64,000 bases of DNA, taken from positions 3,074 through 67,073 of the forward strand of contig JAQVVF010000002.1 of NCBI GenBank assembly GCA_028699085.1. The letters are read 5' to 3'. The DNA is from Patescibacteria group bacterium. Lineage in GTDB: Bacteria > Patescibacteriota > JABMPQ01 > JAQVVF01. This document shows, one piece after another, positions 1,521 through 60,658 of the stretch. The stretch's first letter is position 1. Every line of letters starts with the position of its first letter. The position numbers and the translations under genes were made by a program. The notes below the pieces were generated by a model that was not told the DNA's origin, ran no database searches, and worked only from the letters and a program-made list of their open reading frames with translations.

Positions 1521-2774
1521 ATGGAACAAAAAACAAAAGGATTGAAAGTTTATTCTGAAATTGGACGACTCCGTCGAGTCATGATTCATTTCCCTGGTAA
1601 CAACCATGCCTTGATGACTCCTGACAATATCAATCCTGGAAGCGAGAACTATTTGCTCTATGATGATATCGTCAATCCCAAGCGTACCAGACAGGAATTT
1701 CATACCTTTGCCGATATCTTGAGAGCTGTCGCCGAAGTCGTCACCATCGAAGATTTGATGACTGATATTTTCCGCGATCCGCAAATTCGTCTTCATGCAA
1801 TCAATATTGTTGCAAAAATTGAAGGTCTTAACCAAAATGACGCTTCAGAACTCGACTCTCTCGAAGGAGACCAGCTGACGCGTACGTTCATCATCGGCCG
1901 TTACGATGGTCAGATGAATGGCAAGAAATACTTTGAGCCTGATCCCAATTTGATTTTCACTCGCGATATTGCAGCTATTGTTGGCAATCATGCAGTTCTC
2001 TGCTATGCCAGCAAGAAAGCTCGCAATCGTGAGATGGCAATTGTCCGACTTGTTCTGAAATATCATCCGCTCTTCAGCGATCTCAAGTTGATTGACATCA
2101 ACGAAGATACTGATCAAATCGTTACCATTGAAGGCGGAGACATGGCAGTCGTTAGCGACAAAGTAGTTCTGGTTGGATGTTCCGAAAGGACTAACGAAAT
2201 TGCCATTGACCGGCTCGCCAATCGCCTTCTGCAAAATGGTTTCGAAACTGTCGCTCGAGTCAGTCTCGCTGAGGCTCGCTCGTGCATGCACTTGGATACG
2301 ATCTTCACTCGCATTTCTCACAACGAAGCAATTGTTCATGCTCCAATGGTTTTGAAAAATGGTGGCTTGAAAATCGAGTACAGATCGAAGCGTATCAAAG
2401 AATGGACTAGAGATAACAACAACTTGATTAGCTTCCTCTATGCAAACAATATCGAACTTGATCCCATCGTCTGTGGTGGACATAATGAAGTCAATCAGCT
2501 CCGCGAACAGTGGACCGATGGCGCCAACATGTTTGCACTGGCACCCGGAGTAGTCATTGGCTACAACTGCAATGACAATACTCTGCTGGAACTGGGCAAG
2601 CGAGGTTACAAAGTCATCGACGCCGACGAATTCGTCCGCAATTCCGGCTACTACATGTATCGCTACGAGCAGGCTGATTGGAAACTGGCGATTGCTCTGC
2701 CTGGCGCTGAACTCTCTCGCGGCCGCGGCGGTCCTCGCTGTATGACCTGCCCTCTCCTGCGTGATGACGTCTGA
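1521..2774 (+). CDS. arcA: Arginine deiminase (amidinotransferase superfamily)
   Basis: N-terminal VYSEIGRLRRVMIHFPG...LLYDDI, mid FTRD and MHLDTIFT motifs, and C-terminal GGPRCMTCPL catalytic-Cys motif are all characteristic of ADI. The start has an AAGGAG-like RBS. GC content is clearly higher than in neighbouring genes. Confidence 0.8.
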   Translation: MEQKTKGLKVYSEIGRLRRVMIHFPGNNHALMTPDNINPGSENYLLYDDIVNPKRTRQEFHTFADILRAVAEVVTIEDLMTDIFRDPQIRLHAINIVAKIEGLNQNDASELDSLEGDQLTRTFIIGRYDGQMNGKKYFEPDPNLIFTRDIAAIVGNHAVLCYASKKARNREMAIVRLVLKYHPLFSDLKLIDINEDTDQIVTIEGGDMAVVSDKVVLVGCSERTNEIAIDRLANRLLQNGFETVARVSLAEARSCMHLDTIFTRISHNEAIVHAPMVLKNGGLKIEYRSKRIKEWTRDNNNLISFLYANNIELDPIVCGGHNEVNQLREQWTDGANMFALAPGVVIGYNCNDNTLLELGKRGYKVIDADEFVRNSGYYMYRYEQADWKLAIALPGAELSRGRGGPRCMTCPLLRDDV

Positions 2775-2790
2775 TCTAAGGAGTCACCAA

Positions 2791-4656
2791 ATGAAAACTC
2801 AAAATCTTTTGGAATTTGTTTGTTATCAACTTCTTTTCGCTGCACAGACTACTGTCAATCCAGACTTCAGTACAGCCGAATTTTCACCAAGCAAGCTCAA
2901 GAAACCGCCCAAGCCAGAACTTGGCGATTTCGCTTTTCCTTGCTTTCAGTTGAAAGACTTCGGTGATCCCGCAGACATCGCAGTCTACATTCAAGATTTT
3001 CTGCAAACTGCTATTCCAGCCAATGATCTGATCAAGAAGGTTGAAGTCCAAGGACCTTTCGTCAACATTCATCTCAACACCGGAGTTTTGGCCCAATTGG
3101 TCTGCTCACAGATCTTGGAAGAAGGCCCAAACTACGGCACAGGTTCTGTTGGCCACGGCCAGCGCGTCATGATCGAATTCTTGGCTCCAAACAGTAACAA
3201 GCCTTTGCATCTCGGACACGTCCGGAATGCTTTGCTTGGCGCCAGCATCTCTCGAATTTTCCAAGCCATGGGCTTCGAAGTTATTCGCGCCAACTTGATC
3301 AACGATCGAGGTGCCCACATCTGCAAAAGCATCTATGCTTGGCAAACATGGGGCAATGGCGAAACTCCGCAAAGTACTGGCATCAAGGGCGACCACTTCG
3401 TTGGACGCTACTATGCCCTGTATGGAAAGAAGGAAGACGAAGCTTTTGCTGCTCTTCTCACGTCTCAAGGACTTGATCCGCAAGCTCCTTTGGATGACAA
3501 GGAAGAACGCAAAGCTGCTTTCCTGGAACAGTATCCACCAGCCTTGGCTGTCAAAGATATGCTACTGAAATGGGAAGCCAGCGATCCGAAAGTCTTAGCC
3601 CTTTGGCAGATGATGAATGGCTGGACATACGCCGGTTTTGATGCAACCCTCGCCAAACTCGGAATCGTATTCGATCGAATCTACTATGAAAGCACTACCT
3701 ACTTGCTTGGAAGACAACATGTATTGGACGGACTTAGTCGAGGCGTCTTTTACCGCAAAGAAGATGGAGCAGTTTACGCTGACCTAAAAAATGAAGGTCT
3801 TGATGACAAACTGCTTCTCCGATCAGATGGCACTTCAGTTTATATCACTCAAGATATCGGCACTGCGATTTTGAAATCAACAGACTATCAGCCTCTTGCT
3901 CGATCAGTCTATATCGTTGGCTCAGAACAAATTCACCATTTCAAAGTCCTCTTCTTGCTTCTGAAAATGCTTGACATTGAAGAAGTCAAAAATACTCTCC
4001 TCTATCATCTGCCTTATGGCATGGTCAACCTGCCTGAAGGAAAAATGAAGTCACGACTGGGCAAAATCGTTGATGCTGATGACTTGATCAGAAGCATCGT
4101 CGAACTCGCCAGAACTGAAGCTGAAGCTCTCAACGAAGGAAGGGAAGAAAAAATCACTGAAGTCGAACTTGACGAAATCGCTCGGCAAGTCGGACTTGGA
4201 GCGTTGAAATTCTTCTTCCTTGACAGCAAAGCCCTCTCGGAAATGCGCTACGACCCCAAAAAGTCAATCGCATTCAATGGCCGAACTGGACCTTTCGTCC
4301 AATATACGTATGCTAGAATTGCCAGCTTGCTACGGAAAGCTGAAGAAATCAAGGATCCAGCAAAAATTGATTTCTTGACTCTGCACGAAAGCGACGAACA
4401 TTCATTGCTCCTCGCTCTCACAGAGTTTGGAGCAGTAATTCAGGCAGCAGCAGAAAACTACGATCCATCAAAAATTTCTGCTTATCTTTTTGACCTTGCT
4501 AGAATTTTCAATCGATTCTATGCAAGCCATCGAATCTTTTCTGACGATGTGCCAAAGCAAACTCAATTAGCTCGTCTTGCACTTTGCAAATGCACTGGTG
4601 TTGTAATCAAAAAAGGCCTCGATCTCCTAGGAATCGAAGCCCCTGAAAAAATGTAA
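2791..4656 (+). CDS. argS: Arginyl-tRNA synthetase (class I)
   Basis: Start chosen at ATG 2791, which has a AAGGAG RBS at 2778-2783; the ORF track begins at 2761. HIGH-type motif PNSNKPLHLGHVRN and a C-terminal DALR anticodon-binding region (DLARIFNRFY). GC-rich like arcA. Confidence 0.9.
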   Translation: MKTQNLLEFVCYQLLFAAQTTVNPDFSTAEFSPSKLKKPPKPELGDFAFPCFQLKDFGDPADIAVYIQDFLQTAIPANDLIKKVEVQGPFVNIHLNTGVLAQLVCSQILEEGPNYGTGSVGHGQRVMIEFLAPNSNKPLHLGHVRNALLGASISRIFQAMGFEVIRANLINDRGAHICKSIYAWQTWGNGETPQSTGIKGDHFVGRYYALYGKKEDEAFAALLTSQGLDPQAPLDDKEERKAAFLEQYPPALAVKDMLLKWEASDPKVLALWQMMNGWTYAGFDATLAKLGIVFDRIYYESTTYLLGRQHVLDGLSRGVFYRKEDGAVYADLKNEGLDDKLLLRSDGTSVYITQDIGTAILKSTDYQPLARSVYIVGSEQIHHFKVLFLLLKMLDIEEVKNTLLYHLPYGMVNLPEGKMKSRLGKIVDADDLIRSIVELARTEAEALNEGREEKITEVELDEIARQVGLGALKFFFLDSKALSEMRYDPKKSIAFNGRTGPFVQYTYARIASLLRKAEEIKDPAKIDFLTLHESDEHSLLLALTEFGAVIQAAAENYDPSKISAYLFDLARIFNRFYASHRIFSDDVPKQTQLARLALCKCTGVVIKKGLDLLGIEAPEKM

Positions 4657-9607: not shown

Positions 9608-9679
9608 AATATTAAATAGTTCTTCAATACTTTTTACTTTTACCTTGTAACTTTTTAATTTTTTCTTTTGACTTTTAAC

Positions 9680-10762
9680 TTAAAATCTCAACATCGCTCC
9701 AATTCCACCCATTCCCGCTAATTTTTCATTATCTTCCACAAATTCAATTTTTGCTTTATGGCTAAAAACCTTTTGAACTAATTCATCAACTACATCCTTG
9801 ACATCTTCTGTTTTGAAACTGCAATAAGGACAAACAACTTCATCAAGACCCAAAAAATCACAATTTGGACATTTCTTTCCAGTTGTACTTAATTTAGAAT
9901 CAAGCAACAAAGTTTTAACATCTCTCTCTTGTGCTGCATTCAAAACATTTTTCAAACCGGCAACAGCTAGCTGACCATTCAAACTATTATTTAATTCTTC
10001 AACAAGCATTGCCTCATTTTTTCTTTCTACTTTTTCTTGAACTTGCAATGACTGTTCTAAAAAATGTTCATTAGGCTTGAATAATTCTGTATAAAATTCA
10101 CCTACTACTCTATTTTTCAATTCTGTATGCAAAATTTTCTTTAATTCCGGCAAGATCTCTTTTGATCCAGCTAAAATCAGTCTATCAAATCCTTTTTCTT
10201 TCCAAAATTTAAAAAGCTGATCATTGATCTTTTTCAAATGACGATGCACATGCTCTTCGATATGCAAAGCCTCGCCTTGTTGTACTAATCCGCCTTGATC
10301 ATGTTTGCCAGGAAACTCATCAAAAATATAGCTAAAATCTTGAATCACACCCAAAAAGACTGTAAACAATTTTGCTTTTTCTTTATCACAAACTACAACA
10401 CAATATCTTTCTAATTCATCAAGGACTTGTAACAGTTGCTCAATATGAACATTTTTTTCAACATAAGCTCCTGTCTTAATTGGACAAGGAAATTTATAGA
10501 TTGACCAAAAATTTTTAGATGGACTAGCGTAAAATGCCATGCCTCGGATTTTTTTATCCAATCTCAAATCAATCCATTCTTCAACTTGTTTTGTTGCTTC
10601 ACTTCCCAATTTTTCTTCAACATTTTTCAATAAATCTTTTAGCTTATTTTCAATTTCTTCTGGCTTGTAACGTCTTTGATCGCAATTTAAATAAAGTGTT
10701 ACTACATCCTCTTTGTCGCTTTGTAAACGATTTAATTTTGTTATGTCTTTATTTTCTATCAT
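9680..10762 (-). CDS. eRF1/Pelota-like protein (bacterial eRF1-domain protein) with zinc-ribbon insert
   Basis: Central KHDQGGLVQQGEALHIEEHVHRH resembles the eRF1 domain-2 KHGRGGQSA...RH region, although no GGQ is present. The C-terminal AGMGGIGAMLRF matches the eRF1/Pelota domain-3 GGIAAILRY motif. A CPNC...CPYC ribbon sits in domain 3. Confidence 0.5.
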   Translation of the reverse strand: MIENKDITKLNRLQSDKEDVVTLYLNCDQRRYKPEEIENKLKDLLKNVEEKLGSEATKQVEEWIDLRLDKKIRGMAFYASPSKNFWSIYKFPCPIKTGAYVEKNVHIEQLLQVLDELERYCVVVCDKEKAKLFTVFLGVIQDFSYIFDEFPGKHDQGGLVQQGEALHIEEHVHRHLKKINDQLFKFWKEKGFDRLILAGSKEILPELKKILHTELKNRVVGEFYTELFKPNEHFLEQSLQVQEKVERKNEAMLVEELNNSLNGQLAVAGLKNVLNAAQERDVKTLLLDSKLSTTGKKCPNCDFLGLDEVVCPYCSFKTEDVKDVVDELVQKVFSHKAKIEFVEDNEKLAGMGGIGAMLRF

Positions 10763-11251: not shown

Positions 11252-12057
11252 CTATTTCACTCCAATCGCAAAATATTGTGTCTTAATTGGATATTTTGTG
11301 AAATATTTTACAATGAATTTCTTGTCTTTCTTGATTATCTTGGCATCTGTGAATGTTGTATTAATATTCTGCCATGTGCCAGTTCCTTTTTTGTATTTTA
11401 AGAATAGATTTGCTTTTGTTGCTGATTTATTCTTTTTAAGATATTTCTTTAATTGCTTTTTAGTAAATTTGAATGATACTTTGATTTTGAATTTCTGTGA
11501 TGATTTTTTTACTTTGTATTTGTATAAATTTGTTTTCAATTTCCACTTTTTCAAGAACGTTTTGTTTGGATAACCAGTTGATTTATTCCATTTCATCCAA
11601 TATGCGCTGTTCTTTGTTAATTTGGTTGGAAGCTTTGTGAAATTGATTGTTAGACTTTGACCAGAGATTATTTCATTATTTAATTCTGATTCAAGAATAA
11701 ATTTCTGTCCTGCCCTTAATAAATCTTCGGCCTGATTATTTTCAACCTGGTTAGCTTCAATGATGTATGCTTCTGTTTTGATTTCTTCTGTATTACCAAG
11801 ACTGTCAATTGAAAAGAATTTTAAAGTTGTATCTTGAGTAATTACTATTGGATTTGAATAAACTGTTGAAGAAGTTGTTGGATCTGTGCCATCAATTGTG
11901 TAATAAGTTGCAACAACTGTTGAGTCTGCATCTGTGGCAGATAAAGTAATAGTTTGAGGAGCAGTATATGTTCCTCCAGCTAGCGAAGCTGTGGTTGTAG
12001 GAGCAAGGTAATCAATAAACCATGAAGCAATGTAATTTGCTGATATACCGCCGGCAG
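11252..12057. repeat. Dispersed repeat of about 0.8 kb, near-identical to 56644-57428 (3' module of the propeller-family genes)
   Basis: Aligned by eye: long runs of identity with scattered substitutions and one roughly 20-nt indel. Related but more diverged copies occur at 35539-35935 and 18082-18480. Confidence 0.7.
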
Positions 12058-13057
12058 TTGTAAAATCACCTCCGACATAGAGTTCGTCATTATAGACTGT
12101 TAATGCATCTACTTCATAATTCATTCCAGATCCTACTGCACTCCAAGAAAAGCCATTCCATTTCGAAATACAATTACCATAATCACCAGTAAAATCTCCA
12201 CCAGCATAAAGTTCATTATCATATACAACTAATGAATAAATATTTCCTGTAATTGTAGTGCCAACAGCACCTAAAGAATTATTATCCCAAACAGCAATAT
12301 AGTTAGAAACACCACCGCCAGCAATAGTGAATATTCCGCCAATATACAATTCATTATCGTAAACTGCTAAGGAATACACAAAACTATCAAGCTCAGTTCC
12401 ATCTCCAACTTTGCTCCAAGAACTTCCATTCCATTTCGAGATGTAATTGCCATTAACAGATGTAAATGCTCCTCCAACATAAAGTTCGTTATTATAAACA
12501 CAAAGAGAATTTACATAAGAGTTTAATTCTGTTCCAGCTCCAACTGGAGTCCATGAAGAATCATTCCATTTAACGATATAATTAGCAGGAGCACCATCAA
12601 TATTAGCATTACCACCAACATATAATTCATTATTATAGACAGCTAAGGAATAAACATTACCAGTTACTGCAGTGCCAACAGCACTTAAAGAACTGCCATC
12701 CCAAACAGCAATATAATTGGCAACACTGCCGCCAGCAATAGTAAATGTTCCGCCAATATATAGCTTGTTATTATAAACTACCATAGAAGTAGCTCGACCA
12801 TTGTTAATTCCTGTACCTGCTACTGAACTCCATGAACTGCCATTCCATTTAGCAATTCTTGAACCAGGACTAGTTGTAAAATAACCACCGACATATAGTT
12901 CATTATTGTAAACTGCAAGCGAACGTATATAGCTATCAGTTCCATCACCCAATGCACTCCAAGATGAACTTGTTCTAGCAAAAGATTGATTAACGAAACA
13001 ATAAACACCAATGACTAGAATCATAAACAACGTCATTCTTAAAAATATTTTTTTCAT
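11252..13057 (-). CDS. Secreted 7-bladed beta-propeller surface protein with lysine-rich C-terminal domain (paralog family member 1)
   Basis: Signal peptide MKKIFLRMTLFMILVIGVYCFVNQSFA, then seven repeats of about 47 aa (VYNNELYVGGxFT...NYIAKWNGSSWSxVG). An Ig-like segment follows (YTIDGTDPTTSSTVYSNPIVITQDTTLKFFSID), then a roughly 125-aa K-rich tail ending FAIGVK. Confidence 0.8.
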   Translation of the reverse strand: MKKIFLRMTLFMILVIGVYCFVNQSFARTSSSWSALGDGTDSYIRSLAVYNNELYVGGYFTTSPGSRIAKWNGSSWSSVAGTGINNGRATSMVVYNNKLYIGGTFTIAGGSVANYIAVWDGSSLSAVGTAVTGNVYSLAVYNNELYVGGNANIDGAPANYIVKWNDSSWTPVGAGTELNSYVNSLCVYNNELYVGGAFTSVNGNYISKWNGSSWSKVGDGTELDSFVYSLAVYDNELYIGGIFTIAGGGVSNYIAVWDNNSLGAVGTTITGNIYSLVVYDNELYAGGDFTGDYGNCISKWNGFSWSAVGSGMNYEVDALTVYNDELYVGGDFTTAGGISANYIASWFIDYLAPTTTASLAGGTYTAPQTITLSATDADSTVVATYYTIDGTDPTTSSTVYSNPIVITQDTTLKFFSIDSLGNTEEIKTEAYIIEANQVENNQAEDLLRAGQKFILESELNNEIISGQSLTINFTKLPTKLTKNSAYWMKWNKSTGYPNKTFLKKWKLKTNLYKYKVKKSSQKFKIKVSFKFTKKQLKKYLKKNKSATKANLFLKYKKGTGTWQNINTTFTDAKIIKKDKKFIVKYFTKYPIKTQYFAIGVK

Positions 13058-13096
13058 TTTTTGATTTTATTTTATATATTGAACCTAATTAATAAT

Positions 13097-13131
13097 ATTA
13101 TATCACATTCGAATAAAAAAAATTATCCACA
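13097..13131 (-). promoter_or_regulatory. Promoter module of paralog 1: extended -10 (minus-strand TGATATAAT, hexamer 13097-13102), A8/T8 tract, TTATCCACA box (13123-13131)
   Basis: Same architecture as the modules at 35421-35478 and 58529-58575. The -10 lies about 40 nt upstream of the ATG at 13057. Confidence 0.4.
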
Positions 13132-13173
13132 AAAGAATAATAACATAATATTATACCGACACAAATAACATTC

Positions 13174-13199
13174 AAAAACCCGCCATCCAGACGGGTTTT
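13174..13199. terminator. Hairpin terminator AAAACCCG...CGGGTTTT after the prsA-like gene
   Basis: 8-bp stem with a 9-nt loop, flanked by an A-run and a T-run. It is a sequence relative of the hairpin at 11209-11233. Confidence 0.5.
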
Positions 13200-13234
13200 A
13201 ATTTTGTTATTTAAAATTTAGTTATTTTGTTATT

Positions 13235-14719: not shown

Positions 14720-14865
14720 TACGAATTTCTAATTTTAAATTACTAATTTCTATTAAATTTTCAATAAAGTAATTTCTAAACACTTAACATTATTTAATCC
14801 GTAAAGGTTTAAAAATTAAAGCATTAAGAATTTAATAAAAATTAGAAATTAGAAATTGAAAATTT

Positions 14866-21298: not shown

Positions 21299-21447
21299 AA
21301 AGTTTAGAAAATCCTAAATACTAAATTCTAAATCCTAAACAAATTTAAAATTAAAATTACCAAATATAAAACATCGACATCGTTTTTTAAAATTTGAATT
21401 TTAATCGTTTGGATTTATTTAGAATTTTGTACTTAGAATTTAGAATT
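21299..21447. repeat. AT-rich inverted-repeat intergenic element (family member, homologous to 59006-59138)
   Basis: CTAAATTCTAAA...AAACAAAT.TAAAATTAAAAT.ACCAAAT...ATCG...TTTAGAATTTTGT.CTTAGAATTTAGAATTTTATT is shared with the element at 59006-59138; the last roughly 32 nt are nearly identical. Confidence 0.6.
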
Positions 21448-25595: not shown

Positions 25596-25624
25596 AAAAT
25601 ATTAAATAATTTTAAAATCAAAAA

Positions 25625-29374: not shown

Positions 29375-30499
29375 TTAATTTATTTTGTAATAATTTTCTC
29401 TGCTGTCTTTAAAATTTCTATAAGAATCAAAAATATATTTTTCTATTCGATTTTTAAATAATTTTATATCAAAATCCAAAGCTCTCTTTCTTATTTCTTC
29501 TGGATTAAAATCTTTATCATTAAAATCTCTCACAGCATCAACTAAACTCCACGGAGATTGATCTTCAAATAAGATACCAGTTTTCTTAGGAATTACTGTT
29601 TCTACTGCTCCACCTTTTTTATAAGCAATAACTGGCCTTCCAGATGCCATTGCCTCCAAAGCAGTAATGCCAAAATCTTCTTCTTGAGGGTGAATAAAAG
29701 CTTTGCATCTTGAAAGATAATATGCTTTTTCTTTATCCGAAACTGGACCTAAAAATTCAATATTATCATTTGCCATTTTTTTCAAAGTTTCTAATTCTTC
29801 TCCTGTCCCGATTACCTTTAATGGCAATCTTAATGCATTAAAAGCTTCAACAACTAGATCAACTCTTTTATAAGGACGAAGTCTTGAAACAACCAAAAAA
29901 TAATCATCAATATCATTAGAAATATAATATTTACCTGTTTCAACAGGAGGATAAATAATATCGCTTTTTCTTTTATAATATTTTTCTATTCTTTCAGAAA
30001 CTGTCTTAGAATTAGCAATCATTTTGTCAACTCTTAAAGCAGCTAATTGATCCCAAGTTCTAATTTTCTGCAAAACTAAAGGCAACATTTTTTTAATAAC
30101 ACCTGGCTGCTTTATTTCTTCTGTATAACTATGCGTATCATTCCAAAGATATCTCGTTGGAGAATGAACATAGCTAATATGTAAAGTTTCCGGTCTGACA
30201 ATTACTCCTTTTGAAAATGCAGAACAATCAGACAACACAATATCATATTTAGAAAAATCAAATTGCTCAATAGCTGCTGGCATCATTGAGATATACCATT
30301 TATATTGTTTAACACCAAAAGGCAGACGTTGAATAAAAGATGTCTTTATATTTAAGTGCTTAAAAGCACCTCGAGTTTCTTTCTCATCGTATGTAATTGT
30401 ATAAACAGGAGCTCTTGGAAAAATTTCATGAAAAATTTCCAAGACTTTTTCAGCCCCACCAACTTGATTTAAAAAATCATGTACTAATGCTACTTTCAT
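29375..30499 (-). CDS. Glycosyltransferase family 4
   Basis: ITALEAMASGRPVIAYKKGGAVE motif. Confidence 0.8.
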   Translation of the reverse strand: MKVALVHDFLNQVGGAEKVLEIFHEIFPRAPVYTITYDEKETRGAFKHLNIKTSFIQRLPFGVKQYKWYISMMPAAIEQFDFSKYDIVLSDCSAFSKGVIVRPETLHISYVHSPTRYLWNDTHSYTEEIKQPGVIKKMLPLVLQKIRTWDQLAALRVDKMIANSKTVSERIEKYYKRKSDIIYPPVETGKYYISNDIDDYFLVVSRLRPYKRVDLVVEAFNALRLPLKVIGTGEELETLKKMANDNIEFLGPVSDKEKAYYLSRCKAFIHPQEEDFGITALEAMASGRPVIAYKKGGAVETVIPKKTGILFEDQSPWSLVDAVRDFNDKDFNPEEIRKRALDFDIKLFKNRIEKYIFDSYRNFKDSRENYYKIN

Positions 30500-30591
30500 A
30501 ACAAATTTAAAGTTTAAATCTCAAAATGTAAAATGACAATTTTAATTTTTTATTTGTCATTTTTCATTTTAAATTTTTCATTTTTAATTTT

Positions 30592-31977
30592 CTATGCTGC
30601 TCCATGCATTGTTATAACAATTATGATTGTCTTCAAAAAAATCTGTAAATCTAACAACAACGACCAATTTTCAATATAATAGGTATCTAATCGAACTTCT
30701 TCATTAAAACTAAGATCAGAAGCTCCGGAAACTTGCGCCATTCCAGTCATTCCCGGCTTTATTTCTAAAACTCGTCTTTGATGCTTTGTATATTTTTCTA
30801 CTTCTTGTGGCTCATGTGGTCTTGGACCAATCAAACTCATTTCATTTCGAATAACATTCATCAATTGAGGCCATTCATCAATTCTTGTTTTTCTTAAAAA
30901 TTTTCCTACTCTCGTAATTCTAGGATCATCTTTCATCTTAAATAATGGACCTTTCCTTTCACTATATTTCAGTAATTCTTTTTTCATCCTGTGGGCATTC
31001 TTAACCATTGATCTAAATTTAAAAATATAGAATTCACCATCTTTTTTCACTCGTTTCAATTTTACAAAAACCGTTCCTCGAGAATCAATTTTGATAATTA
31101 ATGCAATCAATAAAAATATTGGCGATAGAATAATCAACAAAACTAATGCCAAGATAACATCAATTATTCTCTTGATAATTCTGCCCCATCCATCCAAAGG
31201 AGTTCTTCTTAAATATACAATTGGAACACCATAAAAAGTTTCCACATCGATATTTGTTGCTTGTGTACCAAAAAGATCTGGTGCATATTTAAAATCAATT
31301 TTTCTTTCATCGGCAAAATCTATCAAAGATAGCACTTGACCTTTTGGTAATTTGGGGTCAATCTGAATAATTTCATCAATTCCCTTTCGCTGAGAGATCC
31401 TCTCTAATGTTCCTTCTACAGTTTCATTAAAACTTTTAATTCTCGCAACTACCTTATAACCAGAATATTTTTTATCTGTTAGATAACGAACAATGCTTTG
31501 GCTAATTGGATTTAAACCGACTAATACAACTCGATGAACACCGATATTGAAACGAAAAAGCCATTTCTGAAAAATCTTGACCAGCTGACGAGCAAAAACA
31601 ACATAGAAAATACTTAAAAACCAAACTACTAGAACAATGAAACGAGATCCAAATAATTCTTGAGCAAAGAATAAAAAGGCAAAAATCGCTGCCATGCCAG
31701 TTGAAACTGCTACAAATACTAAATACAAATCATCAACAAATCTTCTTTTTTTCTTTACGTCATACAATCCCAAAAAAGCAAAAATCAATAACCAAGCCAC
31801 AGCAATCACAGCTACAAAAATAATAAATTGCGCAAACGGTAAATCAAATTTTACTTCTCTGATATCAACAAAATAATTAGTGAATCTCAAAAAATAAGCT
31901 GAAATAGCAGCCAAAACAAGCATTATGAAATCTAATGGAACTAATGCAGCAGTAAAAAACAATTCAGATCTCTTCAT
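30592..31977 (-). CDS. Polyprenyl-phosphate sugar phosphotransferase (WbaP/EpsL-like initiating transferase)
   Basis: Multi-TM N-terminal region and a C-terminal Bac_transf domain (IGPRPHEPQEVEKY...KPGMTGMAQVSG). Confidence 0.85.
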   Translation of the reverse strand: MKRSELFFTAALVPLDFIMLVLAAISAYFLRFTNYFVDIREVKFDLPFAQFIIFVAVIAVAWLLIFAFLGLYDVKKKRRFVDDLYLVFVAVSTGMAAIFAFLFFAQELFGSRFIVLVVWFLSIFYVVFARQLVKIFQKWLFRFNIGVHRVVLVGLNPISQSIVRYLTDKKYSGYKVVARIKSFNETVEGTLERISQRKGIDEIIQIDPKLPKGQVLSLIDFADERKIDFKYAPDLFGTQATNIDVETFYGVPIVYLRRTPLDGWGRIIKRIIDVILALVLLIILSPIFLLIALIIKIDSRGTVFVKLKRVKKDGEFYIFKFRSMVKNAHRMKKELLKYSERKGPLFKMKDDPRITRVGKFLRKTRIDEWPQLMNVIRNEMSLIGPRPHEPQEVEKYTKHQRRVLEIKPGMTGMAQVSGASDLSFNEEVRLDTYYIENWSLLLDLQIFLKTIIIVITMHGAA

Positions 31978-32004: not shown

Positions 32005-32039
32005 GTTAACTGTTAACTGTCAACTGTTAACTATTAACT
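32005..32039. repeat. Five tandem heptads (GTTAACT GTTAACT GTCAACT GTTAACT ATTAACT) with an embedded promoter upstream of the sugar-transferase gene
   Basis: On the minus strand the array contains TTGACA, a 17-nt spacer and TCTAAT, about 25 nt before the ATG at 31977. Each heptad carries the palindromic hexamer GTTAAC. Confidence 0.5.
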
Positions 32040-32106: not shown

Positions 32107-32576
32107 AACTCAAGTAAGTCAGTAAGCCAGGTTCTGTACCGCACATAAAATTTTATGTGCGGTAGTGATTATCTCTCTAGACTGTCGATCGCTCGACAGC
32201 TCAAGCCCCAGTTTATATTGGGTTGCATCAGGTAGAGTTTGCCCTATTGTTATGTCACCATAACAATCTGTGGTCTCTTAAACCACTCTTTTCACCCTTA
32301 CCTAGCACATAAATGCACTAGGCGGTATATGTCTCTGTGGTACTTGTCCTAGCTTCAAAACAACCAGTTCTCTTAAGAAGAACCGGATATTTCTTATACT
32401 TGGTTCCATTTCGGAACTACCACTTAATTCGGAAGTCGGAAATCGGAGCTTCAGAAATCGGAACGATCCGACCTCCGACATCCGATATCTGACTTCCGAA
32501 TTGATGCCCGGACTTTCCTCCCCGCACATAACTTTTGTAAATCATGCACAGAGCAATCACTCAACTTACTTGAGTT
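32107..32576 (-). ncRNA. rnpB: RNase P RNA (bacterial type, about 470 nt with an expansion segment)
   Basis: The minus strand contains GGAAAGTCCGGGC (P4 5' strand), AAGGGTGAAA (P10/11 region), ACAGAACCTGGCTTA (P4 3' strand) and a 13-bp P1 between 32564-32576 and 32107-32119. A candidate promoter is minus-strand TTGACA (32604-32609), 17 nt, TATTAT (32581-32586). Confidence 0.8.
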
Positions 32577-33192: not shown

Positions 33193-33337
33193 AGTCGTAA
33201 TTGTTTAATTGCTAAATTGTTAAAAAGTTTTCCCGTCAACAATTTAACAATAAAACAATTAAACAATTCAGACAATATAAAAAAAGCCGTAAATTTTAAT
33301 TACGGCTTTCATATAGGGAATTCTACTTCTCACAATT

Positions 33338-35347
33338 TTATTCAAAATCTAAATTTTGTTCTTCAGTTATTTCAGAGTTAGTCAGATTTGACAAAGCATC
33401 TTTAGAAGCAATCACAAATTTTACTTTCTCTAGTGTTCTAAAATAGAATGTCGGAGCAAATGGCCTGTTCTTTGTAGTAATATCTAAAGGATTAGGAATT
33501 GTATTTTTTGGGGTTTTGATAAGATAATTTCTAATTTTAAATTTTATTGTGTGTGATGTTTTGTTTTGATAAATTCGGTATGGTCCTCGCCAGTTGTTAT
33601 CTCTATCTTTGATGAATAATCTTAGATCTTTTTCTTTAATCTTGGTTTTATCAAGTTTTGTTTTTGAATAACGAATAGCTACATTAAAATTAATATGCTT
33701 ATTAACTTTTTTGGAATAAGCTTTTTTAACTGTGCCGATATTTGATGACAGTTTTAGATAGCCTGGATAGCTGTTCTTTTTCGTGAAACTGCCAAGATAT
33801 TTCTTTTTGTTTCTATTTAATTTAGTGTAAAGCTTGTTAATGACTTTTGCTTTTGGAAGCTTGTAAAATGTTAAATCTGCATTTGCTTCATTACTTTCAT
33901 AGATTTGATTTAAGACTGTGTCTTTAAGATCAATTTTTTCTGAAAAAGGAGTTGGAGTTACTGGAATTGAAATTGTGTACACTTCTGTTTTTACATCTTC
34001 AATATTTCCTGGACCATCGACAGAAAAGAATTTTAAAGTCGTATCTTCAGAAATAGTGATTGGAGATGAATAGACATTAGAAGATGTTGTTGGTGTTGAG
34101 CCGTCAGTTGTGTAATATGTTCCAGTAACTGTTGAATCTGTATCTGTAGCTGATAAAGTTACTATTTGATCTGAAGTATATGTGCCACCAGCTGGTGAAG
34201 CTGTTGTTATTGGAGCGATATAATCTATATACCAGGAAGCAATACTCTTTGTAGTAATTCCATCTGCTGAATAAAAATATCCTCCAGTATACAATTCATT
34301 ATTATAAACTGCCAAAGCATTAACTGTACTATTAACACCAAAAATTCCTACTTTGCTCCAGCTAGTCCCATTCCATTTAGCAATACGTCTTGCAACAGTA
34401 TCATCAACGTTATAAAAATGTCCTCCAATATACAATTCATTATTATAAACTGCCAAAGCATTAACTTTCCTATTAGCCATTGTACCTAAACCAGAAGTAC
34501 CTACTTGGCTCCAATTAATACCATTCCATTTGGCAATACCATTAACAGTAATGCCATCAGCTGTTGCAAGTTCTCCTCCAGCGTATAGTTCATTTTGATA
34601 AACTGCTAAAGAATAAACTCTAGAATTCATACCTGAAAGACCAACTTTACTCCAATTAGAACCATTCCATTTAGCAATATAATTAACAGTAATATCGTCA
34701 ACTATGGTAAAATGCCCTCCAGCGTACAACTCATTATTGTAAACTGCTAAAACATCTGGATATTGGTTCATTCCTGAAGTACCAACAGCACTCCAGTTAG
34801 CACCATTCCATTTAGCGATACGATTTATAGAAATGCCATCTGCTGCAGTAAAAAGTCCTCCAGCATATAATTCATTATTATAAGCTCCTAAAGTAGTTAC
34901 GATAGAATTCATTCCTGAAATGCCTACCTTGCTCCAGTTAGTGCCATTCCATTTTGCAATATAATTGACAGTGATACCGTCCATTGTAATGAAATCTCCT
35001 CCAACATATAATTCATCGTTATAAACAGCTAAACCATAGATTGTACTGCCAATTTCCGTACCTGAAGTACCTACCAGGCTCCAATTAGTGCCATTCCATT
35101 TAGCAATATGATTAACAGTAATGCCATCAACAGTAGCAAAATCGCCTCCAGCATACAATTCATTTTTATAAACTACTAAAGCATTGATTCCTCCATAACT
35201 CCATTGAGTGCCATCACTTTCCATGCCTGAAATTCCAACTTTGTTCCAAGCTGAGCTTGTTCTAGCAAGAGCCTGATTAGCTAAAAAATAGCATGAGCCT
35301 AGAGCCAAGAATGCAAAAACAATACTTCTTAAAAATGTCTTTTTCAT
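33338..35347 (-). CDS. Secreted beta-propeller surface protein (paralog 3) with a distinct K-rich C-terminal domain
   Basis: Start set at MKKTFLRS, a signal peptide; the ORF-track extension to 35386 lies in the leader. It has about 7-8 blades (VYNNELYAGGxFT...NxIAKWNGxNWS), the same Ig-like segment, and a diverged K-rich tail. Confidence 0.75.
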   Translation of the reverse strand: MKKTFLRSIVFAFLALGSCYFLANQALARTSSAWNKVGISGMESDGTQWSYGGINALVVYKNELYAGGDFATVDGITVNHIAKWNGTNWSLVGTSGTEIGSTIYGLAVYNDELYVGGDFITMDGITVNYIAKWNGTNWSKVGISGMNSIVTTLGAYNNELYAGGLFTAADGISINRIAKWNGANWSAVGTSGMNQYPDVLAVYNNELYAGGHFTIVDDITVNYIAKWNGSNWSKVGLSGMNSRVYSLAVYQNELYAGGELATADGITVNGIAKWNGINWSQVGTSGLGTMANRKVNALAVYNNELYIGGHFYNVDDTVARRIAKWNGTSWSKVGIFGVNSTVNALAVYNNELYTGGYFYSADGITTKSIASWYIDYIAPITTASPAGGTYTSDQIVTLSATDTDSTVTGTYYTTDGSTPTTSSNVYSSPITISEDTTLKFFSVDGPGNIEDVKTEVYTISIPVTPTPFSEKIDLKDTVLNQIYESNEANADLTFYKLPKAKVINKLYTKLNRNKKKYLGSFTKKNSYPGYLKLSSNIGTVKKAYSKKVNKHINFNVAIRYSKTKLDKTKIKEKDLRLFIKDRDNNWRGPYRIYQNKTSHTIKFKIRNYLIKTPKNTIPNPLDITTKNRPFAPTFYFRTLEKVKFVIASKDALSNLTNSEITEEQNLDFE

Positions 35348-35420
35348 TAATTTTAATTTTATTTTACTTGTCCGCCGAAGTTTCACAAAACGAAGGCGGA
35401 TAAAGATTTTAATTAATTAT

Positions 35421-35478
<58 letters not shown>

Positions 35479-35538
35479 GATTGAAAATAAAAAAGACGGA
35501 TCACATTTGAATCCGTCTTTGTCTTTTGAAAATCTACT

Positions 35539-39073: not shown

Positions 39074-39210
39074 AATTTCTAATTATCAATTTCTAATTTC
39101 TATTAAATTTCTAATGCATTAATTATCTAATCTTGAACAAAAAAACAAGTTTTCGTTTAGAAATTAGAAATTAATAATTTAATAGAAATTAAAAATTAGA
39201 AATTAAAAAT
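39074..39210. repeat. AT-rich inverted-repeat intergenic element (TTCTAATTT / AAATTAGAA family)
   Basis: The left arm AATTTCTAATTATCAATTTCTAATTTCTATTAAATTTCTAAT is opposed by a right arm TTTAGAAATTAGAAATTAATAATTTAATAGAAATTAAAAATTAGAAATT. Its core CTAATTTCTATTAAATTT is shared with the element at 14720-14865. Confidence 0.55.
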
Positions 39211-41609: not shown

Positions 41610-41623
41610 ATACTTTTTAAATT

Positions 41624-42214: not shown

Positions 42215-43825
42215 TTATATTGCTTTAGTTAAATCAATTCCCGTCATCTCCGCTGGTTTTTCAATGCCCATTAATGCCAAAATTGTTGGCGCAACATCAG
42301 CCAAGGCACCAGTAGGAGATTCTAAGCTCAAATCTGTATTATCAGATTTCCGTTCCAAACCCTTGCCAATCAAAATTAATGGCACTGGATTTGCAGTATG
42401 TTCTTTCTCACTTCGGCCTGTTTGCAAATTAATTTTTTCTTCGCAATTACCATGATCAGCAGTCAAAACTACTACGCCATTATTATTCATTACTTCTGGA
42501 ATTATTTTTTGCAAACAAGAATCCACAAAATCCAAACCTTTTACTGTAGCCTCAATATTTCCGGTATGCCCAACCATATCTGGATTAGCAAAATTAATTA
42601 AAACAAAACTATACCTTTCCTTTATTGCCTTAAGAGCTTCAGAAGTGACGCCTTCTGCTGACATCTCCGGTTTTTCGTCATAAGATTCTACTTTTGGAGA
42701 TGCCACAACTTTATGTATCTCACCTGCAAAAGTTTTCTCGCGTCCGCAGTTAAAAAAGAAAGTGACATGTGCAAATTTTTCTGTTTCAGCAACATGAAAT
42801 TGTTTTAAATTCTTTTTACTGATAATTTCTGATAAGCCATTTGGAGTTTCTTTTTGCTGAAAAGCAATATGATCGCATAATCCTTTTTTATATTCAGTAA
42901 AACAAACAAAAAATAAATCTTCAATTTTTTCACGTTTAAAACCTTTGAAATCATCACTAACAAAAGCTTCTGTAACTTGTCTCGCTCGATCAGTTCGATA
43001 ATTGAAAAAGATTACTGAATCACCTTTTGAAATCTTAGTAACTGGTTTTTCTTTTGATCCTAAAACAACCGGCTCCATCTGCTCATCATAAACTTTTTTA
43101 TTATATGAATCCTTGATTGCTGAAATCGGATCAGAAAAATATTTTCCTTTACCTAGCACCATCGCATTATAGGCTTTTTCAACTCTATCCCAATTATCAT
43201 CTCGATCCATTACATAATATCTACCACTCATTGTCGCTATTTTACCTACTGAAAACCATCCACTTGTTTCCTTTTGAATTCTTCTAACCATATCTATTCC
43301 TGAATCTTTTGGCATATCTCTTCCATCCATAAAACAATGAATAAAAACTTTTTTAACTCTATTCTGCTTAGCTAATTTTAATAACGCAAATAAATGCTCA
43401 ATATGCGCATGTATACCGCCACTACTAATCAAACCCATCAAATGCAAACTGCTTTTATTTTTTTTGACATGTTCAATCGCACCCATCAAAGCTTCATTTT
43501 TAAAAAAGGTCTTATTTAAAATAGCTGTATTTATTAACGGCAAGCTTTGGTAAGAAATTCTTCCTGCTCCCAAATTACCATGACCGACTTCTGAATTTCC
43601 CATATCTCTCCATGGCAAACCAACTTCCTCGCCAGAAGCTTGAATTGTTGTATGAATATAAGTTTTTAGCAATTCATTATAATAAGGCATCTTTGCTTGC
43701 GTAACGCAATTTCCTTTACCTGGAGGAGCAATTCCAAATCCATCTAGAATAATTAATACTGCTTGTTTATATTTTGTAGACATAAATTTTCTATTTCCAA
43801 TTCTCAATTTACAATAAATTTTCAA
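42215..43825 (-). CDS. gpmI: 2,3-bisphosphoglycerate-independent phosphoglycerate mutase
   Basis: AVLIILDGFG...SEVGHGNLGAGR... and a metalloenzyme domain typical of iPGM. Confidence 0.9.
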   Translation of the reverse strand: MKIYCKLRIGNRKFMSTKYKQAVLIILDGFGIAPPGKGNCVTQAKMPYYNELLKTYIHTTIQASGEEVGLPWRDMGNSEVGHGNLGAGRISYQSLPLINTAILNKTFFKNEALMGAIEHVKKNKSSLHLMGLISSGGIHAHIEHLFALLKLAKQNRVKKVFIHCFMDGRDMPKDSGIDMVRRIQKETSGWFSVGKIATMSGRYYVMDRDDNWDRVEKAYNAMVLGKGKYFSDPISAIKDSYNKKVYDEQMEPVVLGSKEKPVTKISKGDSVIFFNYRTDRARQVTEAFVSDDFKGFKREKIEDLFFVCFTEYKKGLCDHIAFQQKETPNGLSEIISKKNLKQFHVAETEKFAHVTFFFNCGREKTFAGEIHKVVASPKVESYDEKPEMSAEGVTSEALKAIKERYSFVLINFANPDMVGHTGNIEATVKGLDFVDSCLQKIIPEVMNNNGVVVLTADHGNCEEKINLQTGRSEKEHTANPVPLILIGKGLERKSDNTDLSLESPTGALADVAPTILALMGIEKPAEMTGIDLTKAI

Positions 43826-43905
43826 TAATCAATTCTCAAAAAATATCAAAAATTGAACATTAGAAATTGTAAATTGATTGGAAATTGATAACTGAAATTT
43901 GGTAA

Positions 43906-46325: not shown

Positions 46326-46398
46326 TTTTTTACTTTTAACTTGTAGCTTTTTACCTGCCTACCGACAGGCAGGCTTTTTAATTTTGACCTTTTACTTT

Positions 46399-46656: not shown

Positions 46657-46717
46657 AGTAGTTCTTTTTACTTTTTACCTGTAGCTTTTTAATTTTTACT
46701 TTTGACTTTTACCTTTT

Positions 46718-53548: not shown

Positions 53549-54388
53549 TTATATTTTATTTTTTGATCCAAATATTTCGATCTTTTTCCTTACTACTTCT
53601 TTAATTACATCGTCTATTGGCTCCATGATATCATAAGGCTTAATCACATCTTCGTCTTCTAAAATCTCGCGCAAGGCCTTTGCAAAAGCCAATCGAAGCT
53701 CTGTATTTACATTAATCTTGCAAATTCCCATGCTAATTGCTTTTTTAATATCTTCAGAAGAAATACCTGATCCACCATGCAAAACCAATGGAATATTGAC
53801 AACCTGAAAAATTTTTTTCAATCTGTCAAAATCTAAAACTGGATTTCCTTTATTCTCGCCATGAACATTGCCAATGCCTACTGCTAAAAAATCAACGCCA
53901 GTTTTTTCAATAAACTTTTGGCATTCAATAGGATCAGCCTTCAAAATTCTAACGTTTTCATCTTTAGAAGGAGTCGGTACAAGACCAATTTCACCTTCGA
54001 CGACAACACTTCTTTCATGAGCATAATCAACAACTTGTTTCGTTAATTCAATATTTTCATCTAATGACATTTTTGAACCGTCAATCATTACTGAATTATA
54101 GCCATTATCTACAGCCCACTTACACATTTCAAAACTCTTTCCATGATCTAGATTCAAATTAATTTGCGCTTTTGATTTTTCCGCAAAAATTTTCATCGAA
54201 TCAAAAAAAATTTCCATGCCAGCATGTTTTATCTCGCCTTCAGAAGTCTGCAAAATTATTGGCGAATTCATTTCTTCCGCAGCAGCCACAATCCCTTTTG
54301 TAATTTCCAAATCAGAAGTATTAAATGCACCAACTGCATAATGATCTTCTTGTGCTTTCTTTAATAATATTTGAGATGAAACTATCAT
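53549..54388 (-). CDS. fba: Class II fructose-bisphosphate aldolase
   Basis: Start set at MIVSSQILLKK; the ORF-track extension to 54457 is hydrophobic leader read-through. YAVGAFN and LDHG motifs. Confidence 0.85.
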   Translation of the reverse strand: MIVSSQILLKKAQEDHYAVGAFNTSDLEITKGIVAAAEEMNSPIILQTSEGEIKHAGMEIFFDSMKIFAEKSKAQINLNLDHGKSFEMCKWAVDNGYNSVMIDGSKMSLDENIELTKQVVDYAHERSVVVEGEIGLVPTPSKDENVRILKADPIECQKFIEKTGVDFLAVGIGNVHGENKGNPVLDFDRLKKIFQVVNIPLVLHGGSGISSEDIKKAISMGICKINVNTELRLAFAKALREILEDEDVIKPYDIMEPIDDVIKEVVRKKIEIFGSKNKI

Positions 54389-54412
54389 AATAGTTTTAAA
54401 ATAATATTTAAT

Positions 54413-54531
54413 AACCAAGATACAAGATACAAACAAATTCCAAATTAGAATAATCAATAACCAAACTCGTCGATCGTTAGGTTTGATTATTGGATATTGA
54501 ATATTTTAATTTGTTTGTATCTTGTTTCTTG
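54413..54531. repeat. Long inverted repeat (about 22/24-bp arms, about 70-nt spacer with central CGATCG palindrome) between tpiA and fba
   Basis: CAAGATACAAGATACAAACAAATT at 54413-54437 opposes AATTTGTTTGTATCTTGTTTCTTG at 54508-54531. Confidence 0.55.
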
Positions 54532-54535
54532 ATTA

Positions 54536-59005: not shown

Positions 59006-59138
59006 AAAAACTCTAAACTCTAAATTCTAAACAAATATAAAATTAAAATACCAAATTTAAAAACTAATCGTTAAATTTGAACATTTGTATTTTGAACATT
59101 TGAATTTGTTTAGAATTTTGTGCTTAGAATTTAGAATT
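59006..59138. repeat. AT-rich inverted-repeat intergenic element (homolog of 21299-21447)
   Basis: Shares CTAAATTCTAAAC...AAAATTAAAATACCAAAT...GTTTAGAATTTTGTGCTTAGAATTTAGAATTTTATT with the element at 21299-21447. Confidence 0.6.
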
Positions 59139-59894: not shown

Positions 59895-59989
59895 AATTTT
59901 GAATTTTTAATTTCGAATTTTGAATCAATTTTAAATGACTCAATTTTTAATTTTGAAACAGATAATTTAAAAAAAATAAAATTCTGATT

Positions 59990-60658
59990 TCAAAATTCAG
60001 AATTCAAAATTTTCTGTAATTTATTCTTAATATCCTCATGTACAACCTGAATTGGCCTCTCTCCATTAATTTCCTGTAATACTCCCCGTTTTTTATATTC
60101 TAAAATTGCTGGCTGAACTTTTTCATGTGCCCATTTTAATCTCTCTTTAATTTTTTCCGGATTATCATCACTACGATGTTCTAATTTTCCTCCACATTTA
60201 GGGCAATTCAAATTTTTAGAATCTGCAGGTAAAACATTTTTACAGTCTACGCAAATCCTTCTTTGGGTCAATCTTTTCATTGCTTCTTCATCAGAAATTT
60301 GAATATTAAAAACAACAATTTTTTTATTAATTTCCATATCTTTCAAAATCTCATCCAAATCAAAAACTTGCTGACTTGTTCTTGGATAACCGTCTAAAAC
60401 GATAGTTTTGCCATGATCATTTTCTAACAAAGCTTTCTTAATCAATTCTTTAACCATTTCATCTGGTACTAACTTGCCCTCTTTGTGAATAATAACATCA
60501 ATTTTTTTTCCTAAATCTGTCTGCTTTTTTACTTCAGATCGCAAGATTCCGCCCATTTCAATATAATTAAAATCAAATTTTTCACCAATCATTTTGGCTT
60601 GTGTTCCCTTGCCAGATCCAGACGGCCCCATAAACAAAATTAATAATTTATTTTCCAT
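59990..60658 (-). CDS. adk: Adenylate kinase (with zinc-binding lid)
   Basis: Start set at MENKLLILFMGPSGSGKGTQ; the ORF track starts at 60712. The lid carries CVDCKNV...CPKCGG. Confidence 0.85.
   Translation of the reverse strand: MENKLLILFMGPSGSGKGTQAKMIGEKFDFNYIEMGGILRSEVKKQTDLGKKIDVIIHKEGKLVPDEMVKELIKKALLENDHGKTIVLDGYPRTSQQVFDLDEILKDMEINKKIVVFNIQISDEEAMKRLTQRRICVDCKNVLPADSKNLNCPKCGGKLEHRSDDNPEKIKERLKWAHEKVQPAILEYKKRGVLQEINGERPIQVVHEDIKNKLQKILNSEF

Follow-up and report, generated by a model that had tools for sequence, protein, structure and literature searches.

Four intergenic spacers in a 64,000-nt stretch of a Patescibacteria group bacterium (GenBank assembly GCA_028699085.1, contig JAQVVF010000002.1, positions 3,074 to 67,073; the whole stretch is called the window below) are each filled by an imperfect palindrome built from heptanucleotide words. 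On balance, we favour the view that these spacers are copies of dispersed palindromic heptamer elements of 120-150 bp, akin to STRRs (short tandemly repeated repetitive sequences) or to MITEs (miniature transposable elements with inverted repeats), which are transcribed within operons and tolerated there by fold-back. In architecture they come closest to the STRR hairpins of cyanobacteria, and in behaviour to MITEs, to REPINs (doublets of repetitive extragenic palindromes, REPs) or to elements of the ERIC type. They sit only in short stop-to-start gaps inside transcription units.

All four spacers lie on the minus strand, and each occupies the interval between a gene's stop codon and the start codon of its co-directional successor: from a bPH-domain gene to divIC (14720-14865), from a DUF4012 gene to murJ (21299-21447), from ackA to recJ (39074-39195) and from map to ruvX (59006-59138). 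An initial annotation, made from the sequence alone, had placed large inverted-repeat elements in these gaps, and inverted-repeat detection and folding confirmed them at all four. The palindromes cover nearly the full length of the spacers, with inverted repeats at 14724-14786/14802-14864 (63 nt, 76% complementary), 21309-21333/21417-21441 (25 nt, 88%), 39071-39115/39170-39214 (45 nt, 82%) and 59008-59041/59099-59132 (34 nt, 82%). The sense strand of each spacer is predicted to fold into one long AU-rich hairpin of 46-56 base pairs, at -37.1 kcal/mol for 14720 (z -6.9), -32.5 for 21299 (z -4.8), -31.8 for 39074 (z -6.2) and -34.3 for 59006 (z -7.2); for none of the spacers was any of 200 dinucleotide shuffles as stable. 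The arms described initially are present, 15-20% in GC and built of heptamers, but the 60-90 nt between them are no neutral spacer, since the middle is largely self-complementary and makes each element one near-full-length palindrome. We also corrected the right edge of the third element from 39210 to 39195, where the stop codon of ackA lies; pairing continues from there into the 3′ end of the gene, to about 39211.

Alignment and profile search (nhmmer) divide the four elements into two families, in which homology spans the centre and not the arms alone. Family A, with TTCTAAA/TTTAGRA words, comprises 21299..21447 (E 3e-29) and 59006..59138 (E 1e-27), and family B, with TTTCTAA/TTAGAAA words, comprises 14720..14865 (E 7e-24) and 39074..39195 (E 3e-21). 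Both quoted strings shared within pairs were found, CTAATTTCTATTAAATTT in 14720 and 39074 and the stretch of about 32 nt, TTAGAATTTTGT.CTTAGAATTTAGAATTTTA, in 21299 and 59006; overall, copies within the window are 62-71% identical. The coding DNA of the window gave zero matches to the family profiles. The motif TTAGAAWTTAGAA, with at most one mismatch allowed, matched 12 times against 1.9 expected (about sixfold), a count reached in 0 of 100 shuffles, and 10 of the 12 matches are inside the four elements and only 2 in genes. The random scatter, genes included, that the initial annotation had named as the observation that would speak against such elements was therefore not seen.

The window is a segment of a bacterial chromosome with 31% GC, in which the minus strand carries nearly all genes from 4.7 kb on. 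Its closest public relative is CAZNOH010000001.1 (CAZNOH01 below), a metagenome-assembled genome labelled uncultured Candidatus Saccharibacteria, with 91% identity in MurJ; relatives farther off carry the label Patescibacteria. In a scan of all spacers of the window, the long ones split cleanly into two classes: eight have a terminator with a GC-rich stem and a T-tract and/or an extended -10 promoter (TGnTAnAAT), whereas neither of these was detected in the hairpin spacers. Without terminator and promoter, the hairpin spacers lie inside transcription units and are expected in polycistronic mRNA; judged from their sequence, they should be co-transcribed within operons. The same division bears on the idea that the elements are unusual intrinsic terminators, or else chance low-complexity sequence, which we consider highly improbable. 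A short T run does follow some elements, for example GAGTTTTTATG at 59006. The genome, however, uses canonical terminators, paired with an extended -10, in its other spacers, the hairpin spacers have no promoter downstream, and their stems are long (45-60 bp) and AU-rich, so that identity with intrinsic terminators was ruled out; chance is excluded by the shuffles, both for folding and for motif counts.

When the RNA is folded, the base of the stem lies at the stop codon and its end 1-20 nt before the next start, so that a stop-to-start hairpin results; at 59006 the stem begins at the stop codon and stops 4 nt short of the ATG. This prediction, with the co-transcription expected above, agrees with the initial proposal that the arms pair the 3′ untranslated region (UTR) of the upstream gene with the 5′ UTR of the downstream one, while the processing, insulation or attenuation role attached to that proposal found no support, and covariation was not above controls. 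The proposal also had the ribosome-binding site of the downstream gene paired. The stem does reach near the start, but this genome has virtually no Shine-Dalgarno (SD) sequences that could be sequestered: an SD-like sequence precedes the start in 3 of 37 spacers.

To follow the elements through related bacteria, orthologous regions were compared in seven related lineages, in which the flanking proteins are 59-98% identical. Junctions with conserved flanks were found filled in some genomes and nearly empty in others, as between the Fer4 and FAD genes (117 versus 10 nt) and between the TIM and fba genes (148 versus 29 nt), among others. An apparent empty site at 25596-25624 was dropped, because the upstream gene differs between the genomes. 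CAZNOH01 has three copies of family A and two of family B in 42 kb, and copies occur at non-orthologous sites across genomes. Ordinary divergence was seen at the bPH-divIC junction (86% identical; 85.7% between 14720..14865 and its ortholog in CAZNOH01) and at the TIM-fba junction (80%). At the DUF4012-murJ junction the hairpin is present in all three 90%-related genomes, and its word changes are matched on both arms, from TTCTAAA/TTTAGAA to TCCTAAA/TTTAGGA and TTCCAAA/TTTGGAA (changed forms in the relatives L001 and L005).

The map-ruvX junction carries a long hairpin in seven of seven relatives, drawn from at least four word families. CAZNOH01 and L020 have family A there, as does the window, L015 has family B and L022 family C (defined below), L017 a hairpin of AATGTCAAAT words and L013 one of TTACAAA words. 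Between the window and L017, DNA identity is 94% in map, 92% in ruvX and 98% in the next spacer, which contains a terminator and a promoter, against 63% in the hairpin spacer, and codons adjoining that spacer have also changed in L017. The drop from 92-98% to 63%, together with the changed codons, indicates that the element was replaced locally, and this exchange probably occurred by recombination.

Copies are also present in bacteriophages. We retrieved IMG/VR contigs with a 17-mer from the right arm of family A and then searched them with the family A profile, which matched along the full length of the element where the contigs have 53-57% GC (best E 4e-19), while contigs ranging from 43 to 66% GC had copies that were partial or had one arm only. 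These contigs are genuine phage head modules, with genes for portal, scaffold and major head protein, and the copies occupy the spacer that lies upstream of either the portal or the major head gene. At their ends, AAATCCTAA...TTAGGATTT, they are AT-rich and stand sharply against GC-rich flanks, and conserved non-repetitive stretches of the 135-nt family (for example CTAAGCACNAAATYCTAAACAAAT) are common to the 31%-GC bacteria and the 43-66%-GC phages. Clean filled and empty sites were found among related phages at two independent junctions. From scaffold to head, the empty site reads ...AAAAAGGAGGAACTAGCTAA AC ATG and the filled one ...AAAAAGGAGGAACTACATAG [element] CTCCAAAGGAGGAAAC ATG; upstream of portal, the empty site reads ...AAGGAGAGTTGA GAG ATG and the filled one ...AAGGAGAGATGA [element] TTGGAGTTGAGA ATG. 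At both junctions, 11-12 nt of local sequence, with the SD included, stand on both sides of the element, as an imperfect repeat that lies a few bases off the element ends; it may be a target duplication, though an imperfect one, or else an SD that has been restored. Other heptamer inserts occur at the same phage junction, namely (GAACATT)5 in contig L080 and a TCTCAAT/AGAGATT hairpin in contig L063. The occurrence of the families at non-orthologous sites and in unrelated GC-rich phages, with sites filled in one genome and empty in another, supports the suggestion of the initial annotation that they form a miniature mobile element family.

A 22-mer of family B was not found in viral contigs, nor were families C and D among 149 viral loci retrieved by their 16-mers. 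BLAST of the family A element against cultured phages and plasmids gave no match, a result to which the low-complexity filter may have contributed. The phage host was not identifiable, the best match of the major head protein being below 43% identity. We note two further structures beside phage copies. Directly after family A in L035 (2605-2620), L101 and L053 there is a small C(C)UCC-NNN-GGAG(G) hairpin, in which CUCC, resembling an anti-SD, is base-paired with the SD that serves the head gene downstream, and in L105 and L112 small inserts, such as GGAAAGG..AATTTA..CCTCTC, are nested in the left arm of family A. A 39-nt insert is likewise nested in a family B copy of the bacterial relative L005 (484-657).

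The constant occupancy of the map-ruvX junction despite complete sequence turnover lends weight to a different explanation, which we take to be possible though clearly less probable than dispersal: that the hairpins are cis-regulatory RNAs selected by the host, serving as RNase III-type determinants of processing or stability or as coupling devices, with the sequence families secondary. In the coupling version, a ribosome terminating at the stop codon would melt the base of the stem and so free the downstream gene's AU-rich leader, in a genome nearly without SD sequences. Such a role would suit the placement of the stem from stop codon to start, spacers that lack promoter and terminator, the near absence of the SD, the matched word changes of orthologs (TTCTAAA/TTTAGAA versus TTCCAAA/TTTGGAA) and the position of the phage elements directly upstream of highly expressed head genes, and for STRR hairpins, too, these roles have been a matter of speculation (PMC2670836). 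On the other side, most junctions carry the hairpin in part of the relatives and are an empty gap of 2-30 nt in the rest, which makes the hairpin dispensable there.

Direct tests for a selected RNA structure gave a mixed result. RNAalifold, applied to an alignment of 16 family A sequences, missed the long helix because the heptamer register shifts, and the helix was set by a scan of column offsets instead. The resulting helix of 40 pairs is 79.5% paired in these sequences, and 53-54% paired after a slide by one column. Covariation in it was not above shuffles (65/500), and wobble pairs on the sense strand were not in excess of antisense-equivalent mismatches (36 versus 32); both results argue against selection on the RNA. 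Of 29 bacterial elements, 24 fold more stably in the sense strand than in the antisense strand, and G-U pairs number 145 versus 69, as regulation through RNA would have it, but this advantage is missing in the phage copies, family A shows no asymmetry of G-U versus A-C, and such asymmetry had to be rejected as an RNA signature, since strand composition confounds it (the G/T-rich leading strand is at the same time the sense strand). A test that folded chimeras of orthologs, with the left arm of one and the right arm of another, was left unused, as some chimeras folded better owing to the split. What does speak for folding is the apex. CpG is sixfold enriched within 12 nt of it (25/614 versus 18/2568, p = 1.6e-8), which argues that the folded form, be it RNA or single-stranded DNA, matters; the apical CpG looks like a GC clamp that nucleates folding of the single strand, and a clamp of this kind would also suit a cis-regulatory RNA.

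A third explanation is that the elements are purely mutational by-products, made in place by slippage of 7 nt and intrastrand template switching (quasipalindrome correction), with neither mobility nor function. Several observations are in line with this. Tandem Repeats Finder reported period 7 far more often than all other periods, and autocorrelation at lag 7 is 0.53 in the four elements; with these set aside, intergenic DNA still has 0.40, the baseline being about 0.335, whereas coding DNA has a period-3 signal only and no lag-7 peak. Many hairpins have private words, perfect local arrays occur, words are homogenised within an element and between its arms, and no transposase came to light. 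We nevertheless regard local mutation as an unlikely sole cause. It leaves unexplained a 135-nt family whose conserved non-repetitive stretches are common to bacteria and phages, the presence of one family at non-orthologous sites, and clean filled and empty sites with flanking duplication.

The dispersal of palindromic elements, which we favour, can be put as a sequence of steps. New copies would arise through insertion or recombinational replacement, and their words would then be remodelled as 7-nt units slip. Inside operons, and likewise in RNase P RNA, only inserts palindromic over their full length would survive, because the transcript folds back on itself; fold-back would return the stop and start codons to about 5-20 nt of each other and add only a helix. 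As secondary effects, the AU-rich stem with its CpG clamp at the apex is predicted to be available as double-stranded RNA for RNase III-type processing or for segmental mRNA stability, and could make downstream initiation depend on upstream translation; it is plausible that the RNA serves RNase III processing or translational coupling. Slippage and template switching probably contribute to word turnover, but local mutation alone cannot explain family A in phages. Insertion or exchange combined with tolerance through fold-back would explain the families, their turnover, their presence and absence, the phage copies, the overlaps with gene ends and the insertion in RNase P RNA.

The last two deserve description. 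Elements reach into the ends of genes and in adk give rise to new C-termini: the C-terminus of adk diverges exactly at the start of the arm of a weak inverted repeat of GAATTTT words at 59895..60011 (minus strand, adk-map junction; 31 nt, 81%), the 5′ arm of which lies in the last adk codons, and each lineage has a different C-terminus. The RNase P RNA (class A, 187 bits; 32107-32572, minus strand) is 466 nt long compared with 367 nt for the model, and contains an insertion of 114 nt in one hairpin loop that has 7 nt in the Rfam model. The insertion consists largely of heptamer repeats, and its core is a 73-nt heptamer hairpin with GUCGGAx/UCCGAyy words at 32428..32500 (minus strand, z -7.3). 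Just downstream of the RNase P RNA gene, at 32005-32039, there is an array of five GTTAACT heptamers.

Several observations weigh against dispersal by mobility. Among about 48 Pfam-scanned proteins of the window no transposase or RAYT-like gene (REP-associated tyrosine transposase) was found, eight small genes at 46.7-51.4 kb lying outside the scan, and no longer element with the same ends was seen. No target duplication is visible beside the AT-rich bacterial copies at the compared junctions, and the 11-12 nt duplicated in phages contain the SD, so that they could reflect selection restoring it and not a target-site duplication. With identities of only 62-71%, the copies in the window bear no sign of recent bursts. 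That many hairpins have words of their own, and that perfect arrays such as (GAACATT)5 exist locally, would fit generation in place equally well. The changed codons beside the replacement in L017 fit recombination rather than transposition, and the constant occupancy of the map-ruvX junction could mean that the hairpin is selected there, not tolerated.

Comparison with known repeats places the elements between two kinds, since their architecture is STRR-like and their behaviour MITE-like, while in sequence and taxon they differ from STRRs. Like the cyanobacterial STRRs, they are tandem 7-nt units in non-coding DNA, the inverted arrays of which form hairpins between co-transcribed genes, and they too are present in an RNase P RNA gene. 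Small elements nested within STRR arrays were reportedly described by Elhai et al. in 2008, and the inserts nested in L105, L112 and L005 are reminiscent of the small dispersed repeats in Nostoc heptamer arrays. STRR1-3 are not known outside heterocystous cyanobacteria, whereas the present elements come from Patescibacteria and phages, are made of AT-rich words (TTCTAAA, TTTCTAA, CAAGATA and others) unrelated to those of STRR1-3, and form whole-spacer palindromes of defined length, with 135-nt families across genomes. Among the intercistronic STRR hairpins is that of hupS-hupL, and transcript stability or translational coupling has been proposed for them (PMC2670836). An STRR in cyanobacterial RNase P RNA is indicated by the title of Vioque 1997, as cited in PMC2858038.

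With ERIC/IRU, Correia/NEMIS, RUP and other bacterial MITEs the elements have in common that they are imperfect palindromes of about 100-160 bp in transcribed intergenic regions, with several copies per genome, variable presence at orthologous sites and the ability to extend reading frames. As is usual for MITEs, we found terminal inverted repeats, small size, no coding capacity and several related copies at unrelated sites. De Gregorio et al. are said to have found that MITE hairpins in mRNA are substrates of RNase III or RNase E. Different from the known MITEs are the internal 7-nt periodicity, the lack of sequence similarity in Rfam and BLAST searches, the lack of a TA or short exact target duplication and of an identified cognate insertion sequence. 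In Rfam, the window element had no match at the gathering score or at E <= 1, and a phage copy had only sub-threshold matches to plant miRNA precursors.

REPINs, which are mobilised by RAYT, share with the elements two inverted arms, a long hairpin, an extragenic position and evolution as a genome family (PMC3116915). REPs are GC-rich palindromes of 20-40 nt with a GTAG or CGTC head (PMC3733652); identity with REPs or REPINs was ruled out, because the arms here are 15-20% GC and heptamer-built, GTAG/CGTC heads are absent and no RAYT gene was seen. TAACTGA heptamers form direct repeats a few nucleotides upstream of starts in Beggiatoaceae, Cyanobacteria and Bacteroidetes, also in ribosomal-protein operons; SD sequences are rare there, and the patchy distribution suggests horizontal transfer (PMC4679880). 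Heptamer arrays and a rare SD are found here as well, and the window has TAACTAAA arrays; the TAACTGA repeats, however, are of one word, direct and almost without inverted copies, whereas here words are many and the inverted arrangement dominates. TIGR arrays, which occur in CPR (candidate phyla radiation) bacteria and phages, have units some 36 nt long in tandem, marked by edge and loop repeats and by two spacers of 8-12 nt, beside a Tas gene with a Nop domain (PMC12045711). They were rejected, as here 7-nt units are scattered between housekeeping genes; no Nop-domain gene was found in the Pfam scan, with the eight genes at 46.7-51.4 kb again outside it. The intergenic RNase III signals of phage T7 are similar irregular hairpins of about 60 nt, in one orientation, between co-transcribed genes. 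They resemble the present elements as a hairpin family between co-transcribed genes, and differ in being neither heptamer-built nor mobile; the hairpins here are predicted. RNase III sites are extended double-stranded stems of some 20 bp or more, which the enzyme cuts with a 2-nt stagger, and the stems predicted here have 45-60 bp. In the literature searched, elements of this kind have not been described from Patescibacteria.

A broader proposal, which we put forward tentatively and consider rather doubtful, is that the elements belong to a general, hitherto unrecognised class of junction-specific heptamer hairpins that extends over CPR bacteria, uncultured phages and cyanobacterial STRRs and is found at stop-start junctions. 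Within such a class, a dedicated mechanism that writes or inserts 7-nt arrays would be a possible origin, as would selection for re-initiation by fold-back across a 130-nt spacer without SD. If this were true, family A would be a portable translation or processing module and not junk. In any case, the elements connect cyanobacterial STRRs with intergenic heptamer arrays and with hairpin MITEs, three phenomena each of which still lacks an explanation, and the phage contigs, with their clean filled and empty sites, allow the mechanism to be tested. In Patescibacteria, whose tiny genomes have few known regulators, and with almost no SD in the present genome, a recurrent structure inside operons is a candidate for the separation or coupling of cistrons. 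A family common to CPR bacteria and phages could mark host-virus linkage. The turnover of the hairpins outpaces that of the genes beside them, and they can lengthen reading frames and enter RNase P RNA, which also matters for annotation and strain typing of uncultured lineages.

The window contains further hairpins of the same kind, all on the minus strand. The element at 54388..54535, between the TIM gene and fba, has the architecture of the four and defines family C (CAAGAWA/ACAAACA words; 64-nt arms, 80%; dG -49.8, z -9.3). Its ortholog in L010 is 80% identical, and family C words recur at the map-ruvX junction of L022. An AATTGTT/AACAATT heptamer-to-octamer hairpin at 33193..33276 lies in the 5′ leader of an RNase HI-like gene, downstream of a canonical terminator (region z -8.4), and a related hairpin is inserted at 17835-17951 of L010, where the window spacer has 10 nt. 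Both elements were absent from the initial annotation and are stronger than the related sites it did name, 43826-43905 and 59895-59989, each of which is weak at z -0.9. When extended, these two reach z -2.6 and -2.3: the first, at 43787..43905 between eno and the iPGM gene, is a marginal heptamer-repeat region (family B hidden Markov model, E 1e-4), and the second is the adk-map repeat described above. An AAAATGA-word palindrome at 30497..30596 (sugar transferase-glycosyltransferase junction; z -2.8; 43 nt, 77%) lies at a site where a relative has a family B element. A single-armed AAAAGTA array lies at 9608..9679, with the same words at 41611-41633, 46326-46403, 46664-46717 and 51613-51677, and TAACTAAA arrays lie at 63241-63319; AATTGTT, CAAGATA, CGCTGATTT and ACGAAT are other words found in spacers of the window. 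Inside ackA (39714-39769, minus strand), an in-frame (GTAAAAA)n-type, that is AAAAGTA-type, array of about 56 nt encodes the low-complexity sequence EKVKSQNSKVKSDKEKVKN.

Hairpins of other composition occur in the compared genomes. In L002, a more distant Patescibacterium, composite hairpins at 500-700 and 940-1120 have GC-rich outer arms (CCATTGCG..GCAATGGAAGCACC/GGAATTTCCACTGCGGAGCAGTGG) around family-A-like heptamer arms; the two copies are 440 nt apart in a region without clear genes. A GC-rich family of long hairpins (CTACCTGGCTTTAGCCAAGGGG..., dG -70 kcal/mol, z -11) is present at different junctions of L010 (16641-16787) and L013 (6224-6393), and its short version, GCGAGGCTTTAGCCTCG, lies at the scaffold-head junction of phage L062.

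Other features of the window are as follows. Five tandem tRNA-Arg genes with five anticodons (CCG, CCT, TCG, TCT, GCG) lie on the plus strand at 785-1296, directly upstream of the genes for arginine deiminase and arginyl-tRNA synthetase (1521-4656), in the sole plus-strand block. A 360-aa protein encoded at 9680-10762 (minus) matches bacterial archaeo-eukaryotic release-factor-like families (baeRF family 10/12, eRF1 domain 3). Promoter-like regions at 13058-13234, 35387-35538 and 58489-58624 (minus) contain a perfect DnaA-box-like 9-mer, TGTGGATAA, followed in two of the three by a (CTT)9 or (CTT)7 microsatellite and then an extended -10; at 58489-58624 the -10 is degenerate, TGATATTAT. Downstream lie paralogous genes (11252-13057, 33338-35386, 56644-58488), whose products are about 600-680 aa long and have the domains CHB_HEX_C_1 and Fn3_assoc; two of these genes contain coding tandem repeats of 141-147 nt (5-6 copies, 71-79% matches) at 34509-35189 and 57445-58346. 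The paralogs look like surface proteins, and their promoter spacing could phase-vary. Finally, the long spacers at 46326-46717 and 51417-51674 (minus) hold small genes missed by the 100-aa filter for open reading frames (ORFs), namely an ORF of about 86 aa starting MHDFHAADNLL and a HypC-like ORF starting MCLTIPGKV; the true spacers around both are AAAAGTA heptamer arrays, one of which flanks a GC-rich hairpin, GCCTGCCTGTCGGTAGGCAGG.

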